Shown piece by piece: positions 1 to 20,366 of a DNA stretch of 64,000 nt. The position numbers and the translations under genes are program-made. The DNA is from Candidatus Peregrinibacteria bacterium CG1_02_54_53. GTDB taxonomy: Bacteria; Patescibacteriota; Gracilibacteria; Peribacterales; Peribacteraceae. Within the stretch, counting starts at the first letter, position 1. Each line of letters opens with the position of its first letter. The notes below the pieces were generated by a model. It had not been told where the DNA came from, did no database searches, and worked only from the letters and a program-made list of their open reading frames with translations. Location of the stretch: assembly GCA_001872575.1 (NCBI GenBank), contig MNWP01000030.1:10780-74779 (forward strand). The letters are read 5' to 3'.

Positions 1-1557
1 GAAGGCCTCTCGCTGGATAATCAGCTTGAAACGTTGCGCGAGTACGCGGCGAAGCAAGGGATGCAAGTTGTGAAGGAGTTTTGTTTTCAGGAAAGCGCGG
101 GTCACAAAATACGGAAGCGTTTTGATGAGATGATCGGCTACGTGAAGGAACATGAAGATGTTGGCGCAATTTTGGCGTACAGAGTGGACAGAACGACCCG
201 CAATTTCCGCGATGCGGTAGCGTTGGACAATCTCAGGATTGAGCAGGATAAGGAATTGCACTTCGTCTACAACCGCTTGATCCTCAAGGCTGATTCCCAC
301 GGGCGTGACATTACCGATTGGGATTTGCAGGTATTCTTGGCAAAGCAGTATCTCAATCGCTTGCAGGAAGACGGCGCGAACACATGGCTTTCTAAAATCA
401 GGCATGGCGAGTGGTCAGGAAAAGCCCCATGCGGCTATAAGAATGTTGAGCTTGAAGAACACAAAGCATGGATCGTGAAGGATGATGAACGCGCCCCATT
501 GGTAAAAAACGGTTTTGAGATGTACGCCACGGGCAATTTCTCACTCAAGGCACTCGCCAAAAAATTAGCTGGCATGGGTTTGACCACGAATACAGATAGC
601 CAAAGGCCGATGTACACAAGCTACTTGGAAGCGCAAATCATCAAAAATCCGTTCTACTATGGCGAGATGGAATTCAAAGAGAAGTTGTATCCGCACCAGT
701 ACGAACCGCTCATTCCCAAGTGGCTTTGGCTCAAGTGCCAAGCGGTCTGCGAGAGCTACGGCAAGACACCGTTCAAGTACGGAACGAAGAGCTACGCTTT
801 CAAACGGCTTCTCACCTGCGCCAAGTGCGGTTGGATTTTGTCTACCTACACACAAAAGAACATCAATTACGTTCGTTGCCACAACTGCAAAGCGGTTCAC
901 GTTAAAGAGGAAACGCTACTCGCTCAGGCGGCTAAGATTTTCAAGAATCTCACAATCCCAAGCGAGGTTGCCGAAGACCTGAAAACAAAGCTGACGGCCT
1001 TTCATGCCGATGAGCAGTATTTCTATGAGCAGAACCTAAAAAGGATCAATGCCGACCTCGCCAAGCTCAAGAAAAACAACAAGACGATGTATCAGGATAG
1101 GTTGGACGGGCGTATTACGGTGGAAGAGTACGACAAAATGTTTGAGGAAAATAAGCAGAAAGAAACAGATTTACTGGAAGAACTCAAGGGTCACAGCGAG
1201 GGCGATAAGGCATTCCACATCGCAGCTTCTTATATACTGGAACTCGCAAAACGCGCTCAGGAGCTTTTTGAGTGTTCGCAACCCGACCAAAAGAACCGTT
1301 TACTGCGTTTCGTATTTGCGAACTGTTCCGTAAAGGGCGAAAAGCTCAGCCCCAAGCTGAAAAACGTGTTTGCGGGTATCGTTGAAAGCAACAAAACGAA
1401 GAATTGGCTCCCCCGGCTGGACTCGAACCAGCAACCAATCGGTTACACGTTGCCCTTCTGTTTCCAGAAGGAGTGGACTATATCATCACCCGTCTGTGTT
1501 TTAGGGTGCGAGGCGCTTCGGCCCGTCATGCATCTGCGGGACGGGACTACTCCATAA
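1..1557 (+). CDS. Large serine recombinase (resolvase catalytic domain + recombinase domain + zinc ribbon); 5' end lies outside the window
   Basis: Frame 1 is open from base 1: EGLSLDNQLETLREYAAKQG precedes the first listed start at 34. It has the resolvase-core 'AYRVDRTTRNFRDAV', a central recombinase domain, the Cys cluster 'CAKCG...CHNC' and a C-terminal coiled coil (LKRINADLAKLKKNNKTMYQDRLDG). The last ~50 codons (1405-1557) are antisense to the tRNA-Asn 3' exon and intron, so the true C-terminus is uncertain. Confidence 0.8.
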   Translation, partial: EGLSLDNQLETLREYAAKQGMQVVKEFCFQESAGHKIRKRFDEMIGYVKEHEDVGAILAYRVDRTTRNFRDAVALDNLRIEQDKELHFVYNRLILKADSHGRDITDWDLQVFLAKQYLNRLQEDGANTWLSKIRHGEWSGKAPCGYKNVELEEHKAWIVKDDERAPLVKNGFEMYATGNFSLKALAKKLAGMGLTTNTDSQRPMYTSYLEAQIIKNPFYYGEMEFKEKLYPHQYEPLIPKWLWLKCQAVCESYGKTPFKYGTKSYAFKRLLTCAKCGWILSTYTQKNINYVRCHNCKAVHVKEETLLAQAAKIFKNLTIPSEVAEDLKTKLTAFHADEQYFYEQNLKRINADLAKLKKNNKTMYQDRLDGRITVEEYDKMFEENKQKETDLLEELKGHSEGDKAFHIAASYILELAKRAQELFECSQPDQKNRLLRFVFANCSVKGEKLSPKLKNVFAGIVESNKTKNWLPRLDSNQQPIGYTLPFCFQKEWTISSPVCVLGCEALRPVMHLRDGTTP

Positions 1558-1782
1558 AGGATAGTCTCTGAACCTGCCTTCGCTTCGGCTACGGCAGGCG
1601 TGCCTTCCTTCATCAGGTTGGGCTTGCCTGCAATCCGAAGCTTTAGCGAAGGATTGGCTGCTGATTGCCCTTCGCTTTCGCGGGAGGGTTTCCAGCAATT
1701 CACCTCGTTATCGACCCAGGATTTCCCTGGGAAGCTGCAACTTTCTTCACAGCCGATTGCTCTACCATTGAGCTACAGGGGA
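1405..1782 (-). tRNA. tRNA-Asn(GUU) interrupted by a group I intron (exons 1782-1749 and 1445-1405)
   Basis: The 5' exon reads UCCCCUG-UA-GCUC-AAUGGUA-GAGC-A-AUCGG-CUGU. The 3' exon reads UAA-CCGAU-UGGUU-GCUGG-UUCGAGU-CCAGC-CGGGGGA-G-CCA. All four stems pair, with one G.U in the acceptor. The spliced anticodon loop is CUGUUAA. The ends resemble E. coli tRNA-Asn (UCCUCUG...GGUUCGAGUCC...GAGGAGCCA, G73), recalled from memory. CCA is encoded. The mature length is 75 nt. Confidence 0.85.
1446..1748 (-). ncRNA. Group I self-splicing intron in the anticodon loop of tRNA-Asn (between positions 35 and 36)
   Basis: It is 303 nt long. In P1, exon GCUGU pairs with intron GCAGC, giving a U.G at the 5' splice site. 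Tetraloop-capped helices include CCCAGG-GAAAU-CCUGGG, CGC-GAAA-GCG and CCUUCUG-GAAA-CAGAAGG. The core 'CUGAUGAAGG...GGUUCAGAGACUAUCC...GAUAUAGUCC' gives the P7 pair GACUA/UAGUC, as in Azoarcus/Tetrahymena-type introns. The last intron base is G (omega-G). There is no credible internal ORF. Confidence 0.8.
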
Positions 1783-3384: not shown

Positions 3385-4788
3385 TCACCGCCCTTTGACG
3401 ACATCCCGTGCCAAGAACGTGACCAGCATCACCACGAGCGGTGCCAATTGCACGAAACCGCGGGCCAGACCCGTCTGTTTCAAGGCTTCGGTTGAGAGCG
3501 ATGTGAAGAGGAAGAGGGCGATCTGCAACCCGAGAGCGGCAAGAACGATGAGGACGAGGGGCGTGATCGCAGATCGCAACAGGTGTTTGCGTGCGACAAC
3601 GAGCAGCAGCAACAGCAGCGGAAAGAGCAGGTGCCAGTTTCCTTCGAAGAACGTATTCACCCACAGCACGTACGGCACACCCGGTTGCCAGCCGAATGAA
3701 TAGCTGGAGGTGATCGCTTTGGCGTTGCCGAATGAAAGTCCGTGCGCCCACTTGAAAGCCACCCATGGCACGCCGATTACCAGCAGCCACCCTATTGTCC
3801 ACACAGTCACGGTTCGGGCCGCGCCGAGTGTCATGCGACCTTGATGACGCAGAAAGATCAGGCCGCCGCCGAATACGGCAAGCAGTAAAGGAAGGTAGAG
3901 GACAAGCGCTTCGTTTTTGGTGAAAACGAGCAGGCCGACCGTAAGGCCGAACAGCCGCAACCAGCTCTGTCTGCGAGATGCATCATGTTCCGTAAGTCCG
4001 TGCGTGAGCAGCGCACCCGCGGCGAGCAGATGACCCGAGAGAAAGACATCCGCATAAGCGTTGAGGCCGTCGAAGAAATAGAGCGGCAAACTGGCGAGCA
4101 GATAGGTGCCCAGCAAAGACCATTGCCATCCGATGCGATGACGGAGCGCGCCGTAGAGCAGTGCCAGCGCCGCCAATAACCAGAGGATGTGCACGCTGTT
4201 CACCAGACCTTCGTCCCAACCTCCTTTCAGTGCGGCGAGTGAGGCTTTGAAGAGAGGAACCGTGGGCGGGTAACTGCTGAGTACGTCGGCTTCGCCATTT
4301 GCAGAAGTGTCGATATCGAGTGTCTGCGTGAAGGCAAAAATCTTTGCCCGATAGTTCCAGTTTTTCAACGTGTCATCGAAGTACGATGGCATTGAGACGA
4401 GAATGAAGGAACCGAAGGCGATTTTGGCGAGTGTCCACAACGTGAGGAGAACGAGGAGCAGAATAAGCCAGCGATTCGCGGTTGGTGATTTGGCGGCGGA
4501 GGGCGCCGTTGTACGAGGAGACAATTTCCATTGGAAGAACCGTGCAAGAGTGAGCAGGGTAGTCATGGCGATTTGCACACTGAGAAAGCCCCAGCGCGTG
4601 AAAAGGATCAGACCTGCGATGTGCGCGAGGAATGTCACGAACATCGTTGCGGTGATCCCCAGCAGAAATCCGATTGCCCAGCGTTCGAGCCGCAGAAGTA
4701 CGGGATGATTGCCTTCGCACAGGCGTACGAGCAGCCAGCCTGAGAGAGAGGGGAGTGCGATGCCGACGAGCAGCAACAACAGGTTCAT
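3385..4788 (-). CDS. Polytopic membrane protein, possibly a GT-C (ArnT/PMT-like) glycosyltransferase
   Basis: The 467-aa protein has at least 10 hydrophobic segments with a loop-rich middle (SYPPTVPLFKASL...). Its start overlaps the upstream stop as ATGA. I saw no diagnostic catalytic motif. Confidence 0.4.
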   Translation of the reverse strand: MNLLLLLVGIALPSLSGWLLVRLCEGNHPVLLRLERWAIGFLLGITATMFVTFLAHIAGLILFTRWGFLSVQIAMTTLLTLARFFQWKLSPRTTAPSAAKSPTANRWLILLLVLLTLWTLAKIAFGSFILVSMPSYFDDTLKNWNYRAKIFAFTQTLDIDTSANGEADVLSSYPPTVPLFKASLAALKGGWDEGLVNSVHILWLLAALALLYGALRHRIGWQWSLLGTYLLASLPLYFFDGLNAYADVFLSGHLLAAGALLTHGLTEHDASRRQSWLRLFGLTVGLLVFTKNEALVLYLPLLLAVFGGGLIFLRHQGRMTLGAARTVTVWTIGWLLVIGVPWVAFKWAHGLSFGNAKAITSSYSFGWQPGVPYVLWVNTFFEGNWHLLFPLLLLLLVVARKHLLRSAITPLVLIVLAALGLQIALFLFTSLSTEALKQTGLARGFVQLAPLVVMLVTFLARDVVKGR

Positions 4789-19972: not shown

Positions 19973-20366
19973 TGGTGGAGATGCCGGGAATCGAACCCGG
20001 GTCCAACGTGTGGCGCAGCTGCTTGTACTGTCGTGCTCTTCTCGTACTCGCAGCCCTTCAGAGAAGAGCAAAGAAAGAGTGCGAGGGATGATGCCTGGTT
20101 GACCGCATCACCGCGACATCAGACGGTGACACTGCCTCGCTGATTACGCCCCATCTCCTTAGCGAGAATCCAGAGTGAGACGTGTTCGCATAGAGCGAAC
20201 CTAGGCGACTGCAAGGGCGGGCGCGAAATTCGCGAACGCCTTCTTGAAGACCGCCGGTACATCTGCAGTGGCAGATATTGTTTGCAACAGTGGGTGCGGG
20301 AACCGTTGCCATCCCGAACAGAAGCGAAACTTCACCAGTATCACGCTGTCGAAACCTGTCATCCCC
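19973..20366 (-). ncRNA. ssrA: tmRNA (transfer-messenger RNA)
   Basis: The 5' end is GGGGAUGACAGGUUUCGACAGCG. The 3' end is GGACCCGGGUUCGAUUCCCGGCAUCUCCACCA. The acceptor stem pairs and includes G3.U70. The internal tag frame ends ...ADVPAVFKKAFANFAPALAVA-UAG, with the stop at 20201-20203. The length is 394 nt. Confidence 0.9.

Follow-up and report, generated by a model that had tools for sequence, protein, structure and literature searches.

A split tRNA-Asn gene in a Peregrinibacteria contig

We examined a 64,000-nt stretch (the window) of contig MNWP01000030.1 from Candidatus Peregrinibacteria bacterium CG1_02_54_53, a contig of a groundwater metagenome. Near the left end of the window, positions 1405-1782 on the minus strand hold a tRNA-Asn(GUU) gene whose anticodon loop is interrupted by a group I intron, and a large serine recombinase gene runs into it on the opposite strand (Table 1). 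A preliminary description, made from the letters of the window, had proposed the split gene. We put the probability at roughly 0.86 that this locus is a tRNA-Asn(GUU) split between U35 and U36 by a 303-nt group I intron that lacks an open reading frame (ORF).

Read on the minus strand from 1782 to 1405, the locus consists of UCCCCUGUAGCUCAAUGGUAGAGCAAUCGGCUGU, then 303 nt, then UAACCGAUUGGUUGCUGGUUCGAGUCCAGCCGGGGGAGCCA. Plain ARAGORN on the unspliced window called no tRNA at 1405-1782. When positions 1446-1748 were deleted in silico, the same program returned a 75-nt tRNA-Asn(gtt) with a regular cloverleaf, the anticodon GUU and an encoded CCA, as expected from the claim that the two exon halves form a perfect cloverleaf once this segment is removed. 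The preliminary description had proposed a search with the Rfam group I model, RF00028 (Intron_gpI). The model matches 1454-1758 on the minus strand over its full length (1-253) with 78.4 bits (E = 3.2e-18), compared with a gathering score of 50 bits. The last base of the intron is G1446, the terminal guanosine of a group I intron, and here too the earlier claim holds. An intact intronless tRNA-Asn elsewhere had been named as a possible sign that this copy is a relic; ARAGORN finds no second tRNA-Asn within the 64-kb window. Contig L128, from an independent metagenome assembly, is 100% identical to the window over 1,919 nt (loci are cited by running number). Taken together, we consider the gene and its intron real and very probably functional.

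Table 1. Features of the split tRNA-Asn locus, ordered by window coordinate.
Feature	Position	Strand	Content and basis
Large serine recombinase	1-1557	+	534 aa in full, first 27 codons left of the window; Pfam Resolvase and Recombinase
tRNA-Asn 3' exon	1405-1445	-	41 nt including CCA; U36 A37 A38, anticodon-stem 3' strand, variable loop, T arm, acceptor 3' strand, G73, CCA; sequence and ARAGORN
Group I intron	1446-1748	-	303 nt, without ORF; first base G1748, last base G1446 (omega-G); RF00028, fold z, family covariation
P9 hairpin	1454-1471	-	CCUUCUG-GAAA-CAGAAGG; Rfam alignment, MFE
P3 3' strand, P8, J8/7, P7 3' strand	1476-1515	-	CGCCUCG, CACCC/GGGUG, GAUGAUAUAGUCC; Rfam alignment, covariation
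P7.1 and P7.2	1522-1561	-	UCC/GGA (1551-1561) and CCCGUC/GACGGG (1522-1545), between P7 and P3'; sequence, MFE
P7 5' strand	1562-1566	-	GACUA, partner UAGUC at 1476-1480; invariant in 24/24
P6 and long extension	1572-1658	-	P6 GCC/GGU; P6a CCUUCGCU/AGCGAAGG, P6b, inner stem GCAGGC/GCCUGC
24-nt module	1632-1655	-	AAUCCUUCGCUAAAGCUUCGGAUU; start of the P6 extension
P4, P5, P5a	1659-1697	-	UGCUGG/UCAGCA, CCCU/AGGG, CGC-GAAA-GCG; Rfam alignment, MFE
P3 5' strand	1701-1707	-	CGAGGUG, partner at 1509-1515
P2 hairpin	1715-1731	-	CCCAGG-GAAAU-CCUGGG; Rfam alignment, MFE
P1	1733-1754	-	Exon GGCUGU (1754-1749) and intron GA paired with the internal guide UUGCAGCU (1740-1733)
tRNA-Asn 5' exon	1749-1782	-	34 nt (nt 1-35); acceptor strand UCCCCUG, D arm, anticodon-stem 5' strand, C32 U33 G34 U35; ARAGORN on spliced sequence, and sequence

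The intron folds as a group I ribozyme

The minimum free energy (MFE) fold of the intron gives P1-P6, P8 and P9, with z = -5.1 relative to shuffled sequences. The core is completed by the P7 pseudoknot (GACUA/UAGUC), and we take the G-C pair of P7 to be the guanosine-binding site, equivalent to G264-C311 of Tetrahymena. The core helices of the window intron contain no mismatches, and the conserved junctions fit the consensus. Several structural claims of the preliminary description are borne out by this fold. It had placed a U.G wobble at the 5' splice site within a GCUGU/GCAGC P1 helix; the Rfam alignment sets the model's conserved U on U1749, and the MFE fold agrees on U1749.G1737. The GAAA-capped helices that it mentioned are P2, P5a and P9, all of which carry GAAA-type loops. 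Its outline of the core was correct for the P7 pair GACUA/UAGUC, but the segment GAUGAAGG belongs to the peripheral P6 extension and lies outside the catalytic core.

With the helices named on the window sequence, we counted pairs over a MAFFT alignment of 24 introns that are 61-70% identical to the window intron. Standard pairs fill 87% of the cells, compared with 73% after column shuffles and 35-47% when partners are slid by 1-3 columns. Changes on both sides occur in 36 of the 59 pairs; P3, P4, P5, P6, P6a, P8 and P9 covary, and P7 is invariant. Every cell of P3 is paired, with double changes in three of its seven pairs. P4 is 95.8% paired (4/6 pairs covarying), the helices of the P6 region (helices 7 and 8 of the alignment) are 94-100% paired, with P6 at 100%, and P8 reaches 94%. 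In P9 all seven pairs covary and 91% of cells are paired. P2 is a perfect 6-bp hairpin in the window; its 43% pairing in the family alignment is owing to misalignment by MAFFT, and we treat it as neutral.

The exon-guide pairs C-G, U-A, G-C and U.G of P1 are invariant in all 24 relatives, and the next pair, formed with the first intron base, has 11 double changes. The register of P1 is fixed because this last pair covaries. RF00028 also matched at full length in 17/17 split loci tested, with scores of 63-102 bits, so the 78 bits of the window intron is typical of the family. The extended P6 architecture recurs in L082 and in about 20 metagenome introns. The window intron therefore has the conserved P3-P9 core, with its P3/P7 pseudoknot and covariation, by which a group I intron is recognized.

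The split tRNA-Asn is widespread

A survey of 80,413 bacterial genomes extended the list of tRNA types known to be interrupted by introns from 4 to 21 (Williams 2020, bioRxiv 10.1101/2020.01.27.920355). The seed alignment of that study includes Pam37.Asn.4Ug, a tRNA-Asn split as CUGU/...g/UAA (bioRxiv 10.1101/2020.01.27.920355). We scanned species-representative genomes with the pattern ATAGTCC - gap - GTAA - gap - GGTTCRANTCC, which demands G before UAA and does not include CUGU. There were at least 120 matches, and the counts given here refer to the 120 listed. The split gene CUGU/intron/UAA with a complete 5' exon accounts for 94 of them, and in seven further rows this gene is truncated at the end of a contig. 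Going by record titles, the hosts among the matches listed include many Patescibacteria lineages, Saccharibacteria, Omnitrophota and Oscillatoriales cyanobacteria (Microcoleus, Tychonema, Phormidium), as well as Nitrospira, Acidobacteriota, Elusimicrobiota, Planctomycetota and others. Intron lengths in this set range from 194 to 590 nt.

The preliminary description considered tRNA-Asn(GUU) an unusual host. This view does not hold, because the class is already catalogued as Asn.4Ug and the same split gene is found in 94 of the 120 listed matches, that is, in at least 94 genome loci. The window intron is an ordinary member of an already catalogued, common kind. Its value as a discovery is low: site-identical tRNA-Asn introns are on record and are abundant in uncultured bacteria and some large phages. 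The less ordinary aspects of the locus are the recombinase gene opposite the ribozyme and a dispersed hairpin in P6, both described below. In the literature that we searched, we found no experimental study of the tRNA-Asn group I intron class. A paper on complete genomes from metagenomes, which discusses the Candidate Phyla Radiation, notes group I introns in some of the tRNAs of these bacteria and the difficulty of detecting such tRNAs (PMC8172020).

The family matters for annotation. Plain tRNA finders miss the split gene. ARAGORN in intron mode labels about 40% of the split tRNA-Asn genes (L001-L120, the window included) as tRNA-Thr(tgt/cgt), from the choice of splice register alone. Genomes such as this one can seem to lack tRNA-Asn because their split genes are missed or mislabelled.

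The same pattern was applied to IMG/VR (L182-L243), where the 62 matches include 20 tRNA-Asn genes with the same split. Several of them (for example L186, L188, L201 and L212) lie on contigs of 200-500 kb beside other tRNA genes, so large phages carry the split gene too. Two loci titled Candidatus Pacearchaeota archaeon, L010 and L020, also have the tRNA-Asn gene split in this way by a group I intron. In Williams 2020, a single call of this kind came from a different genome labelled Pacearchaeota, and a bacterial scaffold binned with archaeal ones was suspected (bioRxiv 10.1101/2020.01.27.920355).

Comparison with known introns

The Asn.4Ug class shares with the window intron its host tRNA and its site, after the fourth nucleotide of the anticodon loop, with U at -1 and G at omega. 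The window reads CUGU/g...g/UAA, split at U35/U36, and agrees with the class at each of these positions. The core motifs GGUGAAUU, CAGAGACUA, AGCGCC and AUGAKAUAGUCC are common to both, and both have additional hairpin structure separating P7 from P3'. In its 5' part, Pam37 is very similar to L061 (Phormidium), a locus of our genome scan. Within this comparison the window intron stands somewhat apart: among the matches listed, its closest copies are about 66-70% identical and come from genomes labelled Patescibacteria, and its P6 is 68 nt longer than the Rfam consensus.

The classical introns of tRNA-Leu(UAA), tRNA-fMet, tRNA-Arg(CCU) and tRNA-Ile(CAU, Azoarcus) are likewise small self-splicing ribozymes in the anticodon loop, as is predicted for the window intron. 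They also share a P1 built on the anticodon stem-loop, a U.G at the 5' splice site and an omega-G. The insertion site differs from that of these introns in other tRNAs, as it lies at 34/35 in Leu and at 36/37 in Ile and Arg, but at 35/36 in the window. In the Michel-Westhof scheme, IC3 introns have no P7.1 or P7.2 between P7 and P3', and the P7.1/P7.2 topology is typical of IA. The window intron has hairpins at 1551-1561 and 1522-1545 in this position and therefore departs from IC3; it reads GGUUCAGAGACUA, whereas the IC3 seed sequences of Williams read GGUGUAGAGACUA. The four classical bacterial tRNA introns have been assigned to IC3 (bioRxiv 10.1101/2020.01.27.920355, citing the group I intron database). 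Judged by topology, the layout of the window intron appears to be IA-like.

Introns in the T-loop of transfer-messenger RNA (tmRNA), represented by the Williams seeds Cbo40.tmRNA and Tsu4.tmRNA, are also bacterial, have a tRNA-like host and carry extra helices after P7. Their host RNA and insertion site are unlike those of the window intron. The window has a tmRNA gene of its own at 19973-20366 on the minus strand (Rfam 87.7 bits), which is uninterrupted and has an unusually long predicted tag, ATADVPAVFKKAFANFAPALAVA.

A serine recombinase gene lies opposite the ribozyme

The recombinase that enters the window from the left is complete on the identical contig L128 (363-1967, minus strand), where it is a 534-aa protein with an N-terminal ARVST motif. 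Its last ~50 codons, up to the stop at 1557, run antisense across the tRNA 3' exon and across P9, P7' and P8 of the intron. A convergent homologous recombinase is found at split tRNA-Asn genes in 17 other loci (L042, L036, L139, L070, L051, L083, L039, L053, L023, L007, L004, L238, L234, L206, L236, L237 and L193), with its stop inside or beyond the 3' exon. These loci were drawn from genomes, metagenomes and IMG/VR, and all of them were chosen for the split gene. In L238, neighbouring ORFs resemble by eye the Zot ATPase and the replication protein of filamentous phages. These data suggest that the recombinase loci represent a family of integrating elements whose target is tRNA-Asn.

We tentatively consider a broader possibility, although we think it doubtful: large-serine-recombinase elements of a widespread family may use the split tRNA-Asn as their attachment site and, independently of this, the 24-nt hairpin of P6 may be a small dispersed module that can move among introns, rRNA insertions and intergenic sites in Patescibacteria. 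If the first part is true, and if the crossover lies in or upstream of the overlap, the element would carry with it the 3' exon and a portion of the intron, and intron and element would spread together. One stretch of DNA would then be doubly constrained, as ribozyme and as recombinase C-terminus.

A proposed splicing pathway

By analogy with the standard two-step group I pathway, we propose the following course of splicing. In the precursor, G30-U35 would leave the anticodon stem and pair with the guide GCAGCU to form P1, with U35 in the U.G wobble. P1 and the anticodon stem would be mutually exclusive in the precursor because P1 is built from nucleotides 30-35. A free guanosine bound at the P7 G-C pair would attack after U35. 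Omega-G1446 would then dock in the same site, and the 3'-OH of U35 would attack after G1446. Joining of U35 to U36 would produce the anticodon GUU and restore the anticodon stem, with the spliced sequence ...GCAAUCGGCUGU/UAACCGAUUGG..., and ordinary end processing would yield a tRNA with U1-A72, G73 and the encoded CCA. The intron is predicted to self-splice in a guanosine-dependent manner, presumably without help from proteins.

Alternative readings of the locus

Two splice registers are possible in the sequence, CUGU/UAA (Asn) and CU/UGUAA (Thr), since there is a GU just after the U33 splice candidate and a UG just before UAA. In the second register the host would be tRNA-Thr(UGU), with an intron at 1448-1750 and CU joined to UGUAA (junction GGCUGUUAACC). 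An intron-aware scan with ARAGORN, proposed in the preliminary description, does call a split tRNA here, but it settles on this Thr register both in the window and in about 40% of relatives. It had also been argued that the Thr register satisfies the U/G rules. U1751 and G1448 do agree with the bare rule of U before the intron and G at its end, but U1751 faces A rather than G in P1, and the wobble falls on U1749 (U35) in the Rfam alignment and in 24/24 relatives. The omega-G would moreover be absent from the Thr register in 33 of the 94 listed relatives. U1-A72 and G73 are marks of bacterial tRNA-Asn that its charging machinery uses. The tRNA body has both in the window and in 92/94 listed family members, whereas intact tRNA-Thr genes in the same set of loci have G1 and A73 or U73. 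The Aminicenantes locus L094, kin to genomes with split genes, has an intronless tRNA-Asn with near-identical exons, U1, A72, G73 and the loop CUGUUAA. In cyanobacteria, U1 is reported to be conserved in tRNA-Asn and tRNA-Gln only (PMC5733544). The preference of the preliminary description for Asn is upheld by the covariance model, the geometry of P1, the tRNA identity features and the 94 listed relatives. The Asn register is right and the Thr(UGU) register, to which we give next to no credence, is wrong.

Several other points weigh against a functional tRNA-Asn interrupted by a group I intron. By inspection, no convincing P10 (UAAC with bases 5' of the guide G) is present in the window or the family, so alignment of the 3' exon may rely on the tRNA body. 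Omega-G is found in 100% of the family because the scan pattern demanded G before UAA, and splicing in vivo is a step that we infer. As 64 kb of the genome is in view, a second intact tRNA-Asn may lie elsewhere, and the split gene could then be a decayed relic in a disabled copy. The L094 locus has orphan intron and exon fragments beside its intact tRNA-Asn, and the neighbouring recombinase suggests rearrangement at the window locus. We nevertheless regard a relic as improbable: the core helices are fully paired and the junctions fit the consensus, the intron scores 78 bits, mid-range for the family, the two complete exons together form a perfect cloverleaf, and an identical sequence is present in the second metagenome assembly (L128). 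A further point is that the recombinase gene lies opposite the 3' exon and 112 nt of the intron, and therefore the 3' part of the tRNA may be a junction made by an integrating element. In this variant of our preferred reading, the gene would be a functional hybrid produced by integration of a serine-recombinase element, from which the 3' exon, and perhaps the 3' portion of the intron as well, would derive; all or part of the intron would then move with the element. The recombinase ORF does read antisense through the 3' exon and end inside the intron at 1557, a convergent recombinase with its stop in or past the 3' exon recurs in the 17 loci, and L238 has its filamentous-phage-like ORFs. However, we saw no second attachment site, empty site or circular junction, with the body of the element outside the window. 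The 17 loci were selected for split genes, so the association could be with tRNA-Asn in general, and the reading frame through the exon varies (WLPRLDSNQ in the window, GLEPG in L139). We consider such a hybrid origin unlikely, though less so than a relic, and retain a tRNA-Asn(GUU) split by a group I intron as the best explanation.

The L094 locus (Ca. Saccharicenans subterraneus) has an arrangement of its own. Its intact intronless tRNA-Asn is at 4329-4404 on the minus strand, and about 3 kb downstream of it, at ~1350-1440 on the same strand, is an orphan that consists of the last ~60 nt of an intron and a 3' exon. Between them lie two long ORFs, of 424 and 432 aa, that look outer-membrane-like by eye. 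This looks like the trace of an intron loss or a gene rearrangement. We discarded the idea of an integrase-borne replacement of a split gene, since the intervening 3 kb holds these two ORFs and no homolog of the window recombinase. No such homolog is present in L094; other integrases were not looked for there.

Some family members encode endonucleases

Sense-strand ORFs of about 100 aa are present in 22 of the 94 listed introns, all of them at least 400 nt long. These ORF-bearing introns of 400-590 nt include L004, L015, L021, L025, L039, L043, L065, L070, L072, L073, L078, L080, L091, L105, L108 and L110, among others. The encoded proteins carry CxxC...HH...CxxCH motifs. One of three intron proteins tested passes the cut-off of Pfam HNH (PF01844), and the other two give weaker matches below it. 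The endonuclease ORF appears to lie close to the intron's 5' end, ahead of the guide sequence. Because some members encode HNH proteins, the family includes homing-type mobile introns. The ORF list has no credible ORF in the window intron, which is overlapped by spurious ORFs only and so encodes no homing endonuclease. We propose that the window copy is a derivative without the endonuclease.

A dispersed 24-nt hairpin in P6 and further observations at the locus

A search of 1200-2200 for promoters and terminators gave no promoter-like site; it gave a single weak terminator-like site, no more than chance would produce. The identity between L128 and the window runs to window position 1919, about 137 nt upstream of the tRNA 5' end, where L128 stops (its position 1). 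This point falls inside a GC-rich, hairpin-like stretch at 1895-1935, and the end of L128 could be an assembly break at a strain-variable junction. We also suspected a repeat, CGAAGCGAAGG, shared by the intron and the region at ~1895-1935 upstream of the tRNA. It has 6 matches in the window compared with 2.1 expected, a number equalled in 2 of 100 shuffles, and we dropped it as a family; the element that is actually shared is the 24-mer at 1632-1655.

This 24-mer, AATCCTTCGCTAAAGCTTCGGATT, occurs once in the window, and a scan of the window with Rfam gives no family at 1632-1655 at its own gathering score. Its first 21 nt have 61 exact matches in contigs of groundwater metagenomes (L121-L181). 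About a third of these matches are in group I introns, whose hosts ARAGORN in intron mode gives as Asn, Met, Phe, Leu and Ser (unverified calls). The remaining matches are found within 23S rRNA following ...GGAAAAGAAAAC, immediately downstream of tRNA 3' ends, or a short way upstream of ORF starts. In introns, long-range pairs with variable partners are formed by the strand CCUUCGCU. Outside introns, the module can form a hairpin, AAUCC...GGAUU.

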